The notes under the pieces were generated by a model, which was not told the DNA's origin, searched no databases, and worked only from the letters and a program-made list of their open reading frames with translations. DNA of 63,735 nucleotides, the filler included, from Reticulomyxa filosa (Eukaryota > Protista > Foraminifera): the NCBI GenBank assembly GCA_000512085.1. It is 15 parts of 15 records of this genome, joined end to end, with 100 filler letters (N's around TTAATTAATTAA, not from the genome) between each part and the next. Parts side by side here need not be neighbours in the genome. Positions count along the whole stretch, not along the records: positions 61,537 to 63,735 come from ASPP01012926.1; 14 more parts are not named here. One strand, 5' to 3'. This document shows, piece by piece, positions 8,810 through 63,733 of this stretch. The stretch's first letter is position 1. Each line of letters opens with the position of its first letter. Both the position numbers and the translations under genes were made by a program.

Positions 8810-11800
8810 TTAGAAAGGCAGCCTTGCCCAAAATTTAATAACCTGTTTTGGTTTTACTAGTTTTTTATCATGTTTTTTCGATTCTTCATATGCACATTTA
8901 TATGCAGTAGCACAATGTTTCCATGTGAACAAATAGTGTGGAAACTGTTTTAATTGTATATCAGGAAGATATTTTTTCAATAAATGACTAAATTGTAAGC
9001 CTTCGTTTCCTGATGTGTTTCGTTTAGTTTGTCCTTGTTCATAAGCTATTTTACGCCACACGTTTAATATGCTCTTTGTGGTACCCAATGATGTCCTATT
9101 AACAAATTCTTTGACCTCTGTTTCAATTTCATTGGTCAAAGGTTGTTGATATATGTCAAGAACAAATGAAGCAATTGAATTTTCATCCAACTGCTCCGAT
9201 TGAACTGAAGTTTTTAATTGTTTCCACAATGCTCCAATATGTTTGACAAAGAGTTTACTGGTTTTATGGTTGGCATCATTTAATTTATCAAATATAATCC
9301 AATCTTTTTTTTCAAATTTCAAGTCTTTAAACAACTCTGTCAATTCTTTATCTATATTAACTTCGTCGATATTTCGAAATAAGTGAACAATAGCATCATT
9401 TACCATTTCCAATGCTCTCTGCTTTTGCAAAGGATACAAAGTGGAAAAACGTAAGCTGTTCCAAAATGATTGAAATTGAGCATCTTTGAGAGCTTCATAT
9501 TTGTTTTCAATGGCTGTAATGCAATTGGGAATGTCAAATTCATTGCGATATTCAAATAAAGGGATAATAAAAGTGATTTGTTGACGACCATGAACAAAAG
9601 TGTGATAGATATCACTTTCAATAGCAGCTAAGTTGAAATATTTGGATATATCAGATTGACCATAATCCAATACTGGAGTACTTCGTCGTTGAATGATTGC
9701 ATTTAACGTTTCTGGATTAAAACATAAAATATCGCGATCTGTGATATCAAACACGCTTTTCCAATTGCGTTGCTCATTATTATTTGAATTTTGTTCTTCT
9801 TTCTTTTCTTCAATAATCTGAATATGTGGATGTTTAGATTGCGCAAACTCTTTCAAAAATTCATTTTGTTGATGTTCCAAATGTCGAATTATTTGATAAA
9901 TACTGAATTGTGAATCATTTACATTGGAATTGGTGATGCATACTTGATCAATAGGTAGATCTTTAAAATCGCGTTGAAATTGTGGACAATTCGATCCAAA
10001 ATAATTCCAATATTTCACAAAATAATTCTTTGAACATTCATACAAATGTTTGAGCATTTGATCTTCTTGAATTTTATGCAATTCATCTGGCATCAATTGT
10101 CGAGAGTATTTGTTGTGAACATATTGGATCAAGCGTACAATATTTGGTAGATATTGCAGATACCAGATACACTCATCCCAATTCGATAGTTGAGCAGTGA
10201 GTGAATAACTATTAGCCAGAGATGGATTTGCAGTAAACACATGGAATAAATCTCTCCATGACAAAGGCTCAACTTTTAAAAATAATTGTGGGAGATGCTC
10301 TATCTTATAACACTTATCTAATTCTTTGATTTCCTCAATTTCACTCATCAATTCTAACCACTTTTTCTTCTTGTCATCATCTGATATAATTTCACTCTTG
10401 TTCCGGAGTTTAATGAACTCGGCTTTGCAATTAAAAAATGTTGAATACTCTTTGTCCAACTTTTCTTCAAATTCACAAATTACTTGCAAATCATTGTTTG
10501 GCAATCCTTTAGGATACCATTCTTTAAATTTTTCAAAAAAGTTTTTAATCCATAGATGAATGGCAATGCATAGCAGCTCTTCACTCAATTTTGTCAGTAC
10601 TTTTAATTTTTCAAAAAGAATCTTAATCTTTCTCCATAAATACTTAGATGAATTCTCTTGATTAGTTTGTCCTATCAATTGCTGAATTTTCTTAGTATCT
10701 TGTGGGATACTTTCATTTCGTAAAAATAATAACAAATGGTGCAACAATTGCAACAATGTGGGTATTAAAGGTTTCAATTTACTCGATTTGCATTGAAGAG
10801 ATGTCATATATCTCTTAAAATAACAGAGCCAGCTCTCTTTCATATCTATTTCTGTTGTATCATTTTGTTGGATTGGCTGTTTGAGAATTGTCTTGACAAT
10901 GGAAGCTCCACGACCATTCATTTGACATTTCACTTGTTTCAGAAGGTCGTCTGACTCGTCGATTGAAAGTGCATTATTGTTCAAACAACCATGCACTATT
11001 AAAGGCTCATTCGAGGTAGTTGATGTAGGCAAACATGATTCGGAGTCGGCCAATAGCAATTGAAATGGATTGCTTTTCATAAATGGAAGAATGGACAGAA
11101 AATGGAAACCTAATGTTGCCACAATTATATCAACTGTATCTCTGATAGGTAATTCACTTTTGAAATCGCTCCAATAAGTGAAGACTTGCCAAAAGATTTT
11201 TTGTTTTGTGATTCCCAATAAGTCATGACGTAGAATATATTTATGCAATCCTGTCATTTTTTTTTAACTAGCAAAATTGCAAAGAAAAATACATAAATTT
11301 AAGAGAGAAAAAAGACTCAAAAGCTAAAACACAAAGAAATTGACTTTGTATTTGATCGGTGGCGTTGTAGTTATCATGGAAACGGATTAATATTAGTGAT
11401 TCTGCAAGCATTTGGGGAGAAAAGAGCGTATCCAATGAGTGATTGTCTAACATATCTGCAAACTTATCATTCATAATTTCCAGTATATATTCCATAAAAG
11501 CACTATCTCCATACACTCCGATGAAAGGATTGAACGAAATATTACGCAATGTCCTTTTACACAATGAATTAAATATAGTACTTGTCTTTAATTCCTTCAA
11601 AAAAGGAAATTGTGTTCCAGCACTTGGGTGAGCGAATATGATTTCAATCCAATGCATTCCTTTCCTTGCGTACAGTTGTTTCAAAAACCATACATATAAA
11701 GCATGTTCATACTGTTTATAGAAACTACTGAAATTTGACAATGATTCACTTATATTTTCCAATAATCTGAATATACTTTGATTTTCTTTGAGTTGTGAGA

Positions 11801-14800
11801 GATCAAAATTCTCATTAACCATCACGGAAATAAGGTTGGTAACATCCACTTTCACTTTTGAAATTTTCGCAACTGAGCCAAGACTGGTGGTATTTTTTTC
11901 ATTACATAACTGACTCCAAGTGTTGTTATCCTTCTTTATCTCTTCGTTCAAGGTTATCAACTCGAAACAACGATTCAACAGCACTGCTTCCTCAGAATGC
12001 AAGGTAAGGCTGTTGTTTAACTTTGTATGCAACACTATTTCTTTATATATTTGCATTTTGAAAATGGGTCCATTGTCGATCTGTGAATACAATTTCCGCA
12101 AAATGGACGTATATACTTTATTCTTCTCTACATTCTCCACACGTTTGATTGCGGCAAGTAAGTCTAGAATGAAATCAGCATATTTTTCCTGGGATGTATT
12201 TCGGTTTTCGCGATAGTCTTTGAGGACAGAATCGACTAGTTCTTCATGTTCCAAAAAGCCATGCTTAATTATTTTTTGTTCTTCAATTGCAAATCCGTCT
12301 ATTCTCAAATATATGATACCAAGGCGACGAATTTCAATTTTTCGTGCACTTTGTAGTAGCTCATTCATAAGACTTTCACTCTTTACTAGCATGCATTGGG
12401 ATAAGAAATTTAAAAAATTGTGATAAAGCATTGCGCTCTCGTTTATGTCAAAGTTTGCTCTTATTGGGATCTCCTTCCAAAGAATCTGGACCGTTTCCAT
12501 AAGCCATGATTCGGGATCTGGAACATGTTTCACACGTATTTTATCCGAAGAGACAGAGATTAGATATGCGTAATGGAAAATTATTTGACGAAAATAATGT
12601 ATGGTCACTTCAATGGTGGCAATCGACAATTTGCCACATAATAGTAATGCCATAGACACAATGATATTTTGTAGAATAATTTGTTGATTTTGCGTATGCA
12701 AATGCGATGAAAATTTATATCGAACCAAGTCCATCACATATTTATGGATTACCTTCAGAGAATAGTCCATATCCCATTGTGTTAAATCATCATTTCCCAT
12801 TGACATTTCTTCCAACTTTGTCGCAACTGAACCAAGATGATCGTTTGGCGACTTGGGACATTCCAAGAGTTTTTGTTGACACCAATTATGAATAGAACGA
12901 CTGAATGGAAAAGAATGCTGCACATATGTTTGAATTGAATACAATTGAGGGTCAATTACAGCTGAAAGCAGGTAATTGGAGTCAATACTCACTGGCTTCA
13001 TTTCAACTAATTCTTCATTTCTCAATGCCTTTTCAAAAAATTGGACATACCATGGCAACTCATCATTTTTTTTGCTTTCGACGTATTTCTTTGAATTATT
13101 TGTAATATGTGCTATTAAGTGTAAATGGTGACAGTAAATAAAACAAATAAAACACAAATAGCAAAACTGCAAAACCACCATTTTGATAAATGGCAGATAA
13201 CACATTGACAAAAGCCAAAGTTACCAAAGTATCAACGGTATTGTGATACTCTACGAAATAAGAACCTTTTCTTTTTTTCATTCCATTTTCCTCTAGATCA
13301 CGCAAAATAGTCATAACGGATTTATGCTTTGTGGCGTTGAACAAGAGTCCTTTTAGTCGATACTTGAGGATTTCTTCACCATCCTTGAAATCAAACACTA
13401 ATGGCAATAGCTTTTTTTCTTCCAACGGATTAATGGAACGTGGAAAATGTAGCCTTCCAAAAGCTTTCTGTGCACACTCGAGTAAATGCTACAAAAAAAA
13501 AAAGTGTAAATATCTATCATTTATTTAAAGAAAATACGAAAAAGCAATACTTCACCTGTTTGGATTGTTTTTCAGCAACATCATTCACTGAGAGTTTCAA
13601 ATCATTTTTTAATGATATTGTGTTTGTTGACAGTAAGTAATCGACATAGACAATCTTCCACTTCCTATTTTTTTTTTAAAGAAAAAGAGACTGCCTTTTA
13701 TTTTTTAGTAAAAAAAAAAGGGGTTTGTTTTTCTAAACTGTCGGAATATTAAAGGAAATGATAATTCTTTGTTGGATTTTCCATTTAATTCTTTGATAGA
13801 TTTTTTGCTGGATTCTCTGCTGGAATGAATAAGTAAAATAACTAATTTTTGTTTTTGACTGTTATTTGAATCATTATAAAACTGATAATGTTCAAGTTGG
13901 AGAATATGAATGATTTGCTCCAATTGATTTTTACTTTTGGGTGTATAACGACATTGCAAGATCAATACATCATTCCGTAGTTCATTTTGAAAAACGCTTT
14001 GATCGTCTTTTCAAATTGCTCTACTTTTTTGAATGATCGAATTTTTTGAGTGCAGTGAACCCGTTCCATTGGAATATTATATTCCATGTCGTTTGTGAGT
14101 ATCATCACCATTTGATCTTTAGATTTCTTTTGCTGGATCTTTATGATATCTTCCTTTTTTATTTTAATTTTATTTGTATTCACAAGAGATAAGTTATATC
14201 TCAAATTAAAAAAAAAAATTATCTCTGTTTACCAAGCAATAAAATTTTATATCTTTATCGGTCTGTATATTCGTCATTATTTCTGGTCGATACAATGGTT
14301 TGAATAGATTGAGTAATTTCGTTTCCAATTCTTTTTCGTCAAATCGGACAGTGTCTAAATTTGTTGTTTGTGGTGACTCTTTTTTTCATCATTTTGATAT
14401 TCATTTGCTTCCTTTGCTTTTCGAACAGCCAAATAAAGTAATGCTGAATAAAGGGTATCCTGACAATATCCACAAAACACGTCAGATAGATTGCTCGATT
14501 TGGATTTATTTAACAACATTTTTTCCATGGATTCAATACACGATTCCATGTTACTTGGCAATGAATTGCGATATGAAATGAGCTGTTTCTCAAAACGACT
14601 GAGAAATGCAAGCTATGTGTTATTTCACATGTGTACATTTATATCCCATACATGTCATACTTATCTAAAAAAAAAGTTAACTGGCATATTTGGACTGTGG
14701 GCATCCTCTTTCTGAACAACGACAACACATTTGAAATTTTCATGAACATAACAATCTCTACTTTCAGTTCCCAATGCCACTCGACAATACACATTCCCTA

Positions 14801-15811
14801 TTTATTTTGAAATAATTTTATAATGCGTATATATTTACATTAAAAAAATAAAATAAAAATACCTGAAGGTCTTCTTTGATATCTTTGATTCAACATATCA
14901 TACAAACTTTCATAAATACTTTCCAAATTGTGCAAAATGACAGTTTTACCAATATTCATACAATCAATAATTTTGTTCAATTGATTATAACTGGTAATAT
15001 TCGAATACATATCTTGAGGAAAATAACTTCCAAATAAAAATACTTGATTGTAATTCAAAATATCGTATTCCAAAAGTAATTGCCAAGAATAATATTTTTC
15101 ACTGATTACCATACAATGTCGACTCACCATCAAACCATTTGATGACTGATCACATTCCATTAAATTTCTTTCCACACACATGACAGGAGTCCATTTCTTT
15201 AATTCTAGCAAAATTTCCTCTTTTGTTTTACCTAACACTTCCACTAAAATCTTCTGCAGCTGTTCATTGTAATTGGTACTGTCAACTCCACCAAAGTTAC
15301 GAAGGTACCCTTCTAATGGTTGCTTGTCAAAAAATTCAGAAAGAGTGGCTTGATATTTGATCAATGCATAAAAATCACGTGCTCCAAAGAAATCACTATT
15401 TCCATTGGGTTTAAATGCATTCGTTTGATCTTTTATTATTTTTTCATATGCCATTATTATTTTTGTAATTGCCTGTTCTGAAAATGTGGGTTCGAGAATT
15501 ACTTTTGCTGTTTCCATCAGGTCATTGTGGTCCATTAAAGGAATGAAATGCATAATCATTCGATTCATTTTGGCAGCATCCAAAGACCAATTCGAAATGC
15601 CAACAAATGCAATTTTGGGATGTTCCAATAATTGATGCAATATTTTCAAAGGATTGTGTGGTGATTGTTCTGCCAAACCAATCTCATCAAATAAAAATAA
15701 TGTGGTAGTGGTTTTGTCATTGGAATATCTTTCAGTCTGATCCCATAATTCTTTGATAGCACTTGGCTTGCAACTTCTTGTACCTTGGAATGAAATGCAT
15801 TGCAATGGTTT
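8810..15811 (-). CDS. RNF213: RNF213/mysterin-like giant AAA+ ATPase / E3-module protein, 5'-partial, multi-exon
   Basis: RNF213 AAA motifs FLFDEIGLAEQSPHNPLKILHQLLE, AFVGISNWSLDAAKMNR, FFGARDFYALIK, LFGSYFPQD, LHNLESIYESLYDMLNQRY, YCRVALGT..CYVHENFKCVVV and FLSRFEKQ. Also an E3-core-like WFLKQLYARKG and a CTD-like YFNLAAIE..FVHGRQQI. Confidence 0.9.
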
Positions 15812-57900: not shown

Positions 57901-58982
57901 ATCTTGTGTTGTTTCGATATTGCATCTTGGAGGCAACGTCAAATTCTTAAGCACGAAATATCAATGACCTGGGACACTTGTTCGACTTGAAGATAAAAGT
58001 ATTAAAACGTTAATACTTGTTTCATCTTGTACGAACCTGCCAATGGTAAGTAAACAACAACTTGATATTTCGGGTCATTCTCGATGCAATTAAAGTTCTA
58101 TTACGTCCATAACTTTATTGATAGAGTGTGGACGGACATACATCTGGAATAATCTTTGAAATTGCTGTTAATTATACCACATTTGTCCAAGGAGTTAGTT
58201 ATATATATTCCCGTACAACTTTGTTTGATATGCGCACAGATCAATTTTTGGATCGATGTTGTCGTCACTGGTGGTCCGTGATTTTTTTTTTAATCCATGT
58301 TGGTCACAAAGAAAATCTTGTATGTTCATATCGTTCGTGTGGGAGGTATCATATGAAAAATGGTTATATATGGCGAATGTATTGCAGTGGATGTTCAAGA
58401 AGTTAATAATGCAATTGATCAATGGGCAAAACATAACCAACGATGTCATCATTTTATATCTGCGTCAATCCAGCCGATGTTTCATTTTCTTCCACTTTAT
58501 CACAAACATCGACACCTGTAATGTGTTAGTGCAGAAATACACATGCGCTGCAATTCATTATGCAGTAGTTTCAAAATACAAATAATTTGCTTTCAATGTC
58601 TTCTCATTGCCAAACTTCGATTTCTATAATATTCAACCACACCATATTCACACATACATTTTTTTAAACAAACACACACAAAGAGAAAAACTTACTCAAT
58701 CAATGTTGTTATCCCGCGCAGGATACAATCACTTTTCAAATTTAAAAAAAATAATAAAAAATTAACATTTATAATATAATTTTTTTCATTTATTAATTTT
58801 TTTCTTTTTCTTTCTNNNNNNNNNNNNNNNNNNNNNNNNNNNNNNNNNNNNNNNNNNNNTTAATTAATTAANNNNNNNNNNNNNNNNNNNNNNNNNNNNN
58901 NNNNNNNNNNNNNNNACACAAACATGTGTATACGTATACGTATACGTATATATTTATTTCTTTTTTTTTTTAAAAAAAAAAG

Positions 58983-61419
58983 GTAATGTCGAATTTTGGA
59001 GCGAGGCGACAACGACATTGCGTGTGAGTGATGGTGTGTTGATCGTAGTGGATTGTGTGCAAGGTATACGCATGCAAACAGAGACCTTGTTGCGACAAGC
59101 AATTTCCGAAAGAGTTCGTCCCGTTTTGTTTTTGAATAAGTTGGACTGCGTATTTTCTGAGTTGCATTCATCTTTGGAAGACTGCTATCAAATCTGTGCC
59201 AATATCATTGAGGCTGTAAATGTGATTTGTCAAACGTATGAAGATCAAAATTTGGGAAACATTGAAGTTTGATATACATGTACATACATAGATATATACG
59301 TATATCTATGTGTATATATATAAAGGTCCAAAAAAAAAATGGACATGGTAAGGTCTTGCCACACACTGAGCGCGTTGCATTTGGAAGTGGACTTCAGGGA
59401 TGGGGATTCACATTGCGTGATTTTTCTCGATTATATGCATCAAAGTTTGGTTTGCCCACTAAAAAGATGTTGAACATGTTGTGGGGTGATCACTATTGGG
59501 ACCCACTTGCAAAAAAGTGGGTCACTCAAAATTCTGGTATGTATACATCATATTTTCGTTTAATGAACAAAAAAAAAAAAATGTAATTATTAATAAATTT
59601 TTTTTTTTTAAAAAAAAAAAAAAGAGGGCAAATTGATGAGAGGATTTTGTCAGTTTGTGTTGCATCCAATTCGAACGTTGTATGACTCGATAATGGCTGG
59701 GAAGAAAGACCAATTTATGCCGATAGTGAATGCGTTGCGATTGCCATTGAAGCAGAAGGAAATGGATATTGAAAAAAACTGGCTCCAAGATCCAAAGAAA
59801 TTAATGAAAAAGATAATGTGTGTATGGATACCAGCCAATGGTACCTTGTTAGATATGATGGTAAGGCAGCTGCCATCTCCATTGGAGGCACAGCATTACC
59901 GTGTGACCAACTTGTACAGTGGCCCTTTGGACACTCTCGAAGCAGCTGCCGTGGCAAAGTGCGATGCGAGTGGACCCATGTCAGTATACGTTGCCAAAAT
60001 GGTACCTTTTGGACAAAGGCGTTATGCATTTGGTCGAGTGTTTAGTGGGACAATCAAAGAAAGTGAAAACGTTCGAATTTTGGGACCAGATTACGAACAC
60101 AATACAAAACGAGATTTATATGTGAAGAAAGTTGGGAGCATCGGTTGGATCGGAGCGAGAGGATATACGTACAAACCAGAGTCAATCCATGACTGCCCAG
60201 CTGGGAATTTATGTACAATTTTAGACTTGGATAATTTTATGTTGCATTCAGGGACGTTGACTGATAGTGATGAATTTTATCCATTCCGAAATACTTCCTA
60301 TTCAACCGCAAGAGCTGCCGTCGTGCAAGTGGCCATTGACTCCAAATCCCCGGCGGATTTGCCTCGTCTCGTGCAAGGATTGAAACGATTGAGCCAGTTG
60401 GAACCCTCTGCAAGGGTATACGTAGATACATCCGGACAGCATGTACTTTCCAGTGCAGGGGAGTTGCATTTGGATTGCTGCCTGAAGATATTGCGTGAGG
60501 ATTACACGATGAAATTAGTGGATATACACGTAACGGAGCCTCTTGTGCTATCTGTAGAGACCATTACAACGCGCACTGGAACTGACTCCATTTTTCCCAA
60601 GACATGCTTGGCAAAGGCTCCAAACAAGTGCAATCGCTTGTTCATGTGGGCGACTCCTTTGACGAGGTGTTTGTGAAAGGCATTGAAACAGAGGATATCC
60701 GAACTGAAGAAATTACGAATATGAAAGTATTTGCTCGTGATTTGGAAGATAAATATTTGTGGAATGTTGGAGAGGCTCGGAAAGTTTGGACATTTGGATG
60801 CCCTCCGGATGGAATTGCCAACGTACTTGTTGATCTTACCAAAGGGGTACAATACGTACACGAAATCAGAGATAGTGTCACTGCAGGTTTCATGCATGCT
60901 ACCAGGTCTGGTGTTTTGTGTGACAATCCTCTTCGTGGTGTTCGCTTCAATTTGGAAAGTGTCACGCTTCATTCCGATGCGATCCATCGCGGTGCAGGGC
61001 AAATTATACCTTGCGCTAAACGTGTATGCTATGCTTGCCAATTGGCCAGTGGACCGAGACTTATGGAGCCAGTGTATTTGGTGGAGATCGTTGCTCCTCC
61101 AGATGTGCAAGGAGGAGTGATCAATACCTTGCACAGCAGACGTGCAGAAATCGAACAGATCCAAGAACGTCCAGGGACAAAATTACTTGTTGTGCAAGCA
61201 CAGTTGCCCGTTATGGAGTCATTTGGATTCACTACTTTGTTGAGCCAAAGCACTGGCGGAAAAGCAGTCTTTCAAATGAAATTCAGTCAATGGAAACTAA
61301 TGCCTGGAAATCCAATGGAGGAAGGAACATATGCTTATCGTGTTTTACTGCAAACAAGAAAATGGAAAGGGCTGAAAGAAGAGTTGCCAGTATTTTCTGA
61401 TTACTGTGACAAACTATGA
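58983..61419 (+). CDS. EEF2: Divergent eukaryotic elongation factor 2 paralogue, 5'-partial, with introns and a 1-nt frameshift near 60660
   Basis: LRVSDGVLIVVDCV..QTETLLRQA..PVLFLNKLD, VAFGSGLQGWGFTL, LPSPLEAQHYRV, AFGRVFSG, AGELHL, VTLHSDAIHRG, PRLMEPVYLVEI and LPVMESFGFT. Confidence 0.93.
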
Positions 61420-61536
61420 ATTTGCATGTTTTTTTTNNNNNNNNNNNNNNNNNNNNNNNNNNNNNNNNNNNNNNNNNNNNTTAATTAATTAANNNNNNNN
61501 NNNNNNNNNNNNNNNNNNNNNNNNNNNNNNNNNNNN

Positions 61537-63733
61537 TTAATAATGCAACAAATAACAATTCCGTGTAGTGTTGGTGATCCAATTTGTTCAATCTCTCTGG
61601 TTCTTTTTCAAACACTTCTTGCAAAGTAGGTCCATGAATGGCTTCTGAACAAAGTACTGGAATTGTGCTACCATCAACACATTTCAAACATACCAATTCA
61701 CTATGATATGTTCCATGACCTATAATTCGATGATGAAATTGTTCTATCAAATAACTCATTCCTGGCATTTCAGGCCATGCTTTAGCATAAATTGTTGGTA
61801 AATTATCAGATTGTAATTTTATTGGAATCACATTCCTTTGCCCACTACTTATTTTATTATCTTTGAATTTTCCATTTTCGTTCAATAATTGAGCAGCTAC
61901 TCTATTTTTTAATGGTTTGCATCCACCAATCAACGGACTGTTAAATGTTGGCTCATTTCCTTTTGGCGCTCGATCTTCCACCAATTTTTCAAGTATTGTC
62001 TTCCATCTCTTTTTTTCTTCTTTCCAGAGAGTTGTTTCCCCACATCTGTCCGGAATACGATGTAATGTAGTCAAGACATCACTTAAAAACTTTTGAACAT
62101 CTTCTTCTTTATTTTTTTGATAAAACATTAAAATTTGACGGAATGCAACTCGGACATTCATTCCATCCAATGATTGATAAATACTTTGATATACTTTTAA
62201 TTCTCGATGTTTCATCACTAGTAAATCAATGAGCCGTGATAGACTTGATTTTTTATTTGTGACATCAATACCAAGTTCTCTTTCAGCTTTTTTTAGTAGA
62301 TCCATCCGTTGATTACGTACTCGCTCAAATGCAGGTCGTAATAATACAAATAATTGACATCGACGAATTGAACATTCGGCTGCAAATGCACCTCGACTTT
62401 GTTCTCCTCGATACCATTCAACAACTGACTCATCTGCATATTTATTTTGTTGCTTTTTTTCATCTTTCCATTGTTGTATCCTTTTGTTCCATTCAAAATG
62501 GTAAGCTTCCATCTCTTGTTGACATTTTATTAACCATGCTTCACGCAATTGAGAACGGTCAATAATATTACTCAAATTTGTTTTGCCATATGCCTCAAGT
62601 TCTGCTAGAAATGTGGTCTTTTCTTCAGGGACAACAAGTAAATCTCTACATATTTCTAATACTTCCAAACTCAAATCTGCTCGAATACAATTGACGGCCC
62701 AATTACGAACTAACGACTGATTCCAAATCTTCCACTGATTCATTTTACCCATTGTAAGAATGTATCGTTGATTTTGAGCATGAACTTCAAAATCTAAACC
62801 TTCTATGTCATGAGGATCCAGGCAATAACGAGTTCTATAACACCTAATTGCTTCATCCATTTCATTAAATCTGGCATGAACTAGCACTTGTCCAAATAAT
62901 TCGTTTCGATTAATCGTTGTGCTCTTTAAAAATAATGGATTTCCTTCCTGTTCACTCCATTGTTTTGCACTTTGATACAACGACCATACAGTTGAATACA
63001 TTTGTTTCAATTGTTGTTGTTCATTGGAATTAAGACGATAAGGTTGTATTTCTGAAGAAGGAACATGTGTATTTGGTTGATATAGCCATTCGTGTGACGA
63101 TTTATAATGCATTTGGGTCTGTATACGCCATTGCAATACTTGATGAATCAATTCACGCAAGAATGACACTGTATTGTCACAAACTGCTCTCATTCTCTTC
63201 AATTCATTCAGTTGGTCGATAATATGACCAATCTTAATTCCATGATATAAACTTAATGCTAATATAATTTGCTGAGGCAATCGATACAATTGGTCCTTCA
63301 CAGAAATTCCAATACGCTCTTTTTCAAATGTATCTGCTGCTTGTGACATTGGATTTAAAGACTCTGAAATTTGTTTGACAATTCCCAATGAAATATCTTC
63401 TCGTAATTGATGAGTTTTTAACCAACTTCCTAAATTTGTGTTTAAATATTGATTCAAAGACTCTTGATAAATGCGAAATAGTTCATCTGATCCAACTATC
63501 TTTCGATAACTCAATAAAATCTGACGATCAAATAATTCCCAAGTATTACTCCTTTGAATATTAACCAAGTTAATTGGTGTGTGAAGCAAAAGATCTGAAG
63601 TACGATGTGGTATACAAAAATGATCTGCACGTAATCCACTGCAAATAATTTGTGGTGATTCATTGCAATTGTCAAATAAATGCAATAACTCTTCAGGAGT
63701 CTCTCCTAATCCAATTAATGCGATTTCAAACAT
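61537..63733 (-). CDS. Intronless multidomain protein fragment: DUF294-type nucleotidyltransferase / helical substrate-binding region, TPR-like segment, and the start of an atypical (HipA/PI3K-like) kinase
   Basis: More than 730 aa open, partial at both ends. N-terminal FEIALIGLGET..LLLHTP..SVKDQLYRLPQQII..WRIQTQMHY. C-terminal GQRNV..IYAKAWPEMPGMSY..IGHGT..ELV..PVLCSEAIHGPTL. Confidence 0.6.

Follow-up and report, generated by a model that had tools for sequence, protein, structure and literature searches.

The last contig of a stretch of Reticulomyxa filosa DNA (the window: 63,735 nucleotides from assembly GCA_000512085.1, made of 15 small contigs with N-TTAATTAATTAA-N linkers between them) carries one very long open frame, and the question it raises is what protein this frame belongs to and where that protein came from. 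It appears to be a fragment of a large protein in which a nucleotidyltransferase (NTase) is fused to an atypical kinase. The best explanation of the whole, to which a probability of about one half is given, is a captured Dot/Icm-type effector, carried as six R. filosa genes; its predicted activities are transfer of AMP to a protein, likely a small GTPase, and phosphorylation of phosphatidylinositol (PI) on an endomembrane.

The contig (61537-63735, no strand assigned; 2,199 bp, 33.8% GC) is coding throughout and has no flanking DNA. On its minus strand, the frame P0001 (61538-63733) contains zero stops over 732 codons and is truncated at either end, and the remaining five frames hold 22-63 stops each; in base shuffles of the contig (n = 1000), the longest frame averaged 86 amino acids (aa), with a maximum of 199 aa. 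Homopolymers in the contig do not exceed 7, and neither 5-unit dinucleotide repeats nor TRF arrays were found. An initial annotation had described more than 2.1 kb of open, intronless and microsatellite-free sequence, which these results bear out, and all the motifs it quoted were found in the order given. It had also regarded such a frame as unlike most other eukaryotic genes here, but long open frames are not confined to this contig: contig 1 has two without stops, of 817 and 650 codons, neither of which matches Pfam. They lie with a third, of ~320 codons, in window 8813-15811 (minus strand), and the third bears a DEIGLAE-SP motif, presumably that of RNF213-like AAA+ proteins. In the deposited model of the window protein (P0002, 698 aa), two in-frame GT-AG pieces are spliced out, aa 488-505, which are conserved in three paralogues, and aa 661-672, which form the kinase alphaC region and are conserved in bacteria. 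Because both pieces are in frame and conserved in relatives, these introns are false and the pieces coding.

The full-length architecture is provided by paralogues. A similarity search of 1.84 billion representatives gave 222 matches at E ≤0.001, and among the best 150 of the 222 the top non-self matches are 50-75% identical and labelled Reticulomyxa filosa. With fragments joined by consecutive accessions on equally long contigs, they comprise five further loci (P0007, P0005+P0003, P0006+P0008, P0004+P0010, and P0009+P0013), giving six related copies including that of the window. P0007 (2,551 aa) consists of ankyrins, a DUF294 NTase, a helical bundle, a tetratricopeptide repeat (TPR), a linker, a kinase, leucine-rich repeats (LRR), HEAT repeats, and a 170-aa tail. 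The window frame corresponds to approximately residues 542-1246 of P0007, and it is almost certainly the middle third of a ~2,500-aa ankyrin-NTase-TPR-kinase-LRR-HEAT protein. It starts ~22 residues C-terminal of the NTase DxE and ends 5 codons ahead of the kinase catalytic Asp, and both catalytic motifs (NTase GS-x10-DxE and the kinase catalytic loop) lie outside the contig; several paralogues carry these motifs, for which the initial annotation had proposed to extend the contig. Of the proteins compared, none but R. filosa copies has the 170-aa tail (P0007 2391-2551, P0010 1558-1724), for which Pfam and Atlas gave no match.

Five parts can be distinguished in the window protein, all on the minus strand. 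Residues 1-100 (63434-63733) represent the C-terminal half of a DUF294/GlnE/SidM-like NTase, according to sequence alignment and the paralogue fold. The acid of its G-x-x-x-D motif, Asp37 (63620-63637), stands in an alignment column where 123 of the 127 filled rows have D; it is the third conserved NTase acid, with a predicted catalytic role. The second part (aa ~101-270; 62924-63433) is a DUF294_C-like helical bundle with KxxYR and WRxxxQMHY motifs; a DUF294_C match at aa 155-257 (E 4.5e-4, 20.5 bits, under the 22.5 cut-off) is the sole Pfam signal on the window protein. The NTase and helical bundle had been proposed initially, and the motifs and fold of the paralogues agree. Compared with the R-x4-6-H motif of HEPN RNases, the bundle has R203-x5-H209, the commonest His of the family being at R+4, where R. 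filosa has Gln; DUF294_C is listed without the motif in PMC3710099. The TPR-like helix pair noted earlier proved to be a single degenerate TPR (aa ~278-312; 62798-62902), which aligns with the first TPR of the family and at whose position the homologues P0017 and P0015 show weak Pfam TPR matches. A linker follows (aa ~313-595; 61949-62797), predicted to be helical, whose final 100 residues are common to the bacterial fused homologues. The last part (aa 596-732; 61538-61948) comprises the kinase N-lobe and the start of the C-lobe, with a Gly-loop (SGQRNV), the beta3 Lys (in YAKAWPE) and the alphaC region; the catalytic loop starts just beyond the contig end. The alphaC Glu of outgroups is replaced by Ser/Thr across the whole clade, and the Glu of the WPE motif may be a candidate substitute.

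In the deposited models, the NTase motif GS-x10-D-x-[DE] is intact in P0004, P0006 and P0007, damaged in P0005 and lost in P0009, and the kinase set (beta3 Lys, D-x4-N and metal-binding Asp) is intact in P0003, P0007, P0010 and P0013 and lost in P0008. By locus, both sites are intact in P0007; in P0006+P0008 the NTase is intact and the kinase has lost Lys, Asp and DHD motif; P0009+P0013 retains the kinase but not the NTase motif; in P0004+P0010 the third NTase acid is Asn and the kinase loop is intact; and in P0005+P0003 the GS loop is disturbed and the kinase intact. Reciprocal loss of the activities is a matter of two loci and of unverified gene models. The window copy retains Asp37 and the beta3 Lys.

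With regard to enzyme identity, the fold of P0004 (61% identical to the window protein over 272 aa) matches 6yx5, 3k7d and 1v4a, which places the modelled NTase closest to SidM/GlnE. The paralogue kinase-domain fold is nearest to phosphatidylinositol 4-kinase (PI4K) type II, and a lipid kinase is slightly favoured over a protein kinase. The atypical kinase N-lobe of the initial annotation is confirmed by paralogue motifs and fold, but its HipA/PI3K affiliation is not, PI4K type II being closest. It is less probable, though a serious competitor, that a protein of the same origin carries a protein kinase akin to actin-fragmin kinase, CotH and CtkA, with an NTase directed at a non-GTPase protein or at itself, and acts as a cytotoxic or signalling conflict protein. 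Several observations weigh on that side and against lipid phosphorylation with a GTPase target: kinases of this type are the next structural neighbours, the DxKxxN loop of outgroup members resembles protein kinases, GlnE scores almost as well as SidM, and no lipid-binding domain was detected by Pfam in P0007. On the other hand, PI4K II stands ~4 Z units above these protein kinases, the Legionella effectors known from this broad class, LepB, MavQ and AnkK, are PI kinases (PMC9758233), and two fused homologues have 2-3 Ras-family domains at the C-terminus, one of these homologues scoring above the SidM_N cut-off. These Ras-family fusions point toward GTPases and fit a GTPase link of the NTase; that its target is a GTPase is possible, at somewhat less than even odds.

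For the origin of the family, counts and trees exclude duplicates (P0002, P0012, P0154, P0157, P0158, plus P0156 from the NTase set). An NTase occurs on the same chain in 26 of the 57 non-R. filosa kinase-bearing rows, some of which are near-copies. Phylogenies were built for both domains, as had been advised, and the R. filosa copies form one clade in each (kinase support 100/99, NTase 100), which groups with the same fused homologues (kinase 94/100, NTase 84); the six copies are of single origin. P0015 and P0024 are weakly supported sister rows. One fused homologue, P0016, lies on a contig of a gammaproteobacterial metagenome-assembled genome (L001) with bacterial genes adjoining. The adjoining operon (L001 5703-11244) encodes, by eye, a decarboxylase, a tRNA-synthetase-like protein, a lysine/ornithine hydroxylase, a cupin and an FAD oxidoreductase. 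A pattern scan of GTDB found one locus only. Five further metagenome contigs (L002-L006) are gene-dense, and the homologue on L002 adjoins an apparent cell-wall gene cluster (by eye). The same NTase-kinase fusion occurs in a gammaproteobacterial genome that also encodes DotH. Among 101 genomes around G001, 3 contain the kinase, as do 2 of 401 across its phylum, G001 being counted in both; DotH/IcmK, the one component examined, was above cut-off in all four kinase genomes (G001, G047, G048, G072) compared with 11 of 401. As these four genomes are relatives, their co-occurrence amounts to about one independent case. Named but more distant kinase relatives come from Neochlamydia and Paracaedibacteraceae. 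Likeness to effectors of amoeba-associated bacteria, as proposed in the initial annotation, is sustained by the fused bacterial homologues, the DotH/IcmK genomes and the Neochlamydia relatives; the nearest identified relatives are gammaproteobacterial, and chlamydial ones are more distant. Bacterial effector ancestry is highly probable, and the donor was likely a Dot/Icm-type bacterium living inside protists, from which the protein would have been taken up once and whole.

Several variations were also observed among the homologues. Distant members carry the newer Pfam accessions PF27087 and PF28598, by which part of this family may be named. In the NTase-kinase-LRR homologues P0097 and P0139, the C-terminal 450-700 aa consist of 2-3 degenerate Ras-family GTPase domains. 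The C-termini of P0011 and P0015 hold differing domains with a Cys...His pattern, OTU-like by eye and without a Pfam match, and the family tail appears polymorphic. Two kinase domains are present in P0014 (L005 1597-9240), P0071 and P0159-P0162, P0014 being a recent internal duplication.

Residence in the nuclear genome of R. filosa is probable. It would be absent if, as is rather unlikely, this contig and the other copies came from the Midichloriaceae symbiont, or from some other bacterium in the assembly, as an ordinary multi-copy secreted effector that was never transferred. The evidence that speaks for this and against a host gene is that the contig has neither introns nor flanks, that its GC1/2/3s (0.47/0.33/0.19) fits an AT-rich bacterium, with a GC3s under that of 15 of 15 host frames, that the same window includes a bacterial contig (34437-35717), that L003-L006 suggest that several paralogues can co-occur in bacterial data, and that a Midichloriaceae symbiont of R. 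filosa is known (1.31 Mb, 37.5% GC; PMC10847448). The bacterial contig has 63% GC, encodes a DUF898 protein and is a contaminant of the assembly. Intron lack decides nothing here, because young transfers in Rhizaria are often intronless (bioRxiv 2023.01.27.525846). Between the R. filosa paralogues, GC-linked amino-acid composition varies threefold, and homopolymer runs occur in P0008; L003-L006, if assumed to come from one organism, are uniform in composition. Paralogue contigs measure 5-21 kb compared with a host assembly N50 of 3.6 kb (PMC13746701), the nearest identified relatives are gammaproteobacterial rather than Rickettsiales, and the symbiont type IV system is described as incomplete in PMC10847448. 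Codon fit to host frames is the best of all rows overall, but low GC drives it, and a GC-independent codon test, itself unreliable, leans toward the host. These points against symbiont residence are not decisive; of the two alternatives first offered, transfer or endosymbiont, transfer is favoured as a leaning only.

It is improbable that the copies are decaying captured DNA without host function. Four of the five paralogous loci are split, the NTase motif is damaged in three models and the kinase motif lost in one, all of which argue against a functional family. However, the window copy is open across 732 codons, and the kinase keeps its family motifs despite 51-80% identity between copies. 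The paralogue splits are at differing places and the adjoining eEF2-like gene changes frame too, which suggests assembly errors. The latter gene (window 58916-61436) is divergent and intron-bearing, with a frame change near 60,670 where no intron is evident, and is either misassembled or a pseudogene.

Under the captured-effector explanation, the protein would have been secreted by the donor, with its repeats docking it on the vacuole, where the kinase would shift phosphoinositide identity and the NTase would lock a trafficking GTPase. Combining two enzyme domains with four repeat kinds, one chain would determine the lipid identity of the vacuole and at the same time modify a trafficking GTPase. 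In the foraminiferan, duplication would have been followed by restriction of some copies to a single activity, with the likeliest action on its own phagosomes or symbiont vacuoles. It is a tentative and rather doubtful extension that the foraminiferan domesticated the whole effector (SidM-like AMPylase plus PI4K II-like lipid kinase) in six copies whose activities are split, one NTase-only, one kinase-only and one both.

No description of the NTase-kinase fusion or of the R. filosa family was found in the full-text literature, a corpus mostly outside subscription journals. Both modules are of known kinds, and their apparently new fusion recurs in at least 26 environmental sequences; the "undescribed dual-enzyme" protein first proposed agrees with this and with the order of NTase and kinase in P0007. 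Having GTPase-type AMPylation and phosphoinositide signalling on one chain would make their coupling testable in a single non-pathogen protein, for which the single-activity paralogues are natural controls. A review of AMPylation names FICD and SelO as the only eukaryotic AMPylases; an active protist enzyme with the GlnE/SidM fold would add a third kind, a eukaryotic GlnE-fold protein AMPylase acting on the cell's own trafficking GTPases, and its relatives would make up a widespread, so far undescribed family of protist-symbiont effectors, each remodelling the vacuole with two enzymes. Should the contig be bacterial, the effector architecture is new even so, and the R. filosa gene set then contains symbiont genes.

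Among known systems, the AMPylase domain of SidM/DrrA (Legionella pneumophila; PDB 6yx5, 3nku) is the top structural match of the NTase and bundle; it has a G-x11-D-x-D type motif, compared with GS-x10-DxE in the R. filosa family, and is found in Dot/Icm bacteria. SidM AMPylates Rab1 and binds phosphatidylinositol 4-phosphate (PI4P) on the vacuole (PMC12409994). The R. filosa family differs in its ~15% identity and its fusion to a kinase and repeat arrays; full-length P0007 has no Pfam match to guanine nucleotide exchange factor (GEF) or PI4P-binding domains at E 0.01, and P0004 scores 19.2 bits for SidM_N against a cut-off of 27, which was passed by the distant homologue P0097 only (38.2 bits). 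GlnE, GlnD and DUF294-DUF294_C proteins likewise combine a Pol-beta NTase with a HEPN-fold helical bundle behind it, but the R. filosa protein has none of their regulatory domains and an effector-like architecture. A GlnD/DUF294-type nitrogen-signalling uridylyltransferase is very unlikely, since, despite DUF294 and weak GlnD matches and the database label "Protein-PII uridylyltransferase N-terminal domain", the GlnD models reach 15-17 bits against cut-offs of 519-1010 over <100 positions, and P0007 has no HD, ACT, CBS or cNMP domain in Pfam. The NEX2 family of Neochlamydia resembles it as expanded large repeat proteins of amoeba symbionts with a central DUF294 domain, but its members carry an F-box at the N-terminus, in some cases OTU, and numerous TPRs at the C-terminus, with no kinase mentioned in the main text (PMC4209131), while P0007 has ankyrins in front and LRR and HEAT behind. 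For the kinase, identity to PI4K type II is 9-13% and the substrate is predicted only; P0013 has no match to Pfam PI3_PI4_kinase, P0024 reaches 16.6 bits against a cut-off of 27.1, and the HipA family gave no qualifying match. LepB and AnkK were absent from the best 50 structural matches listed. In Legionella, both jobs are done by separate effectors (LepB/MavQ/AnkK and SidM), compared with one chain here. By the defining tests of each, the protein is not a member of SidM, PI4K II, HipA or NEX2, and it is predicted to act in the manner of a SidM-type AMPylase to which a PI4K II-like kinase is fused.
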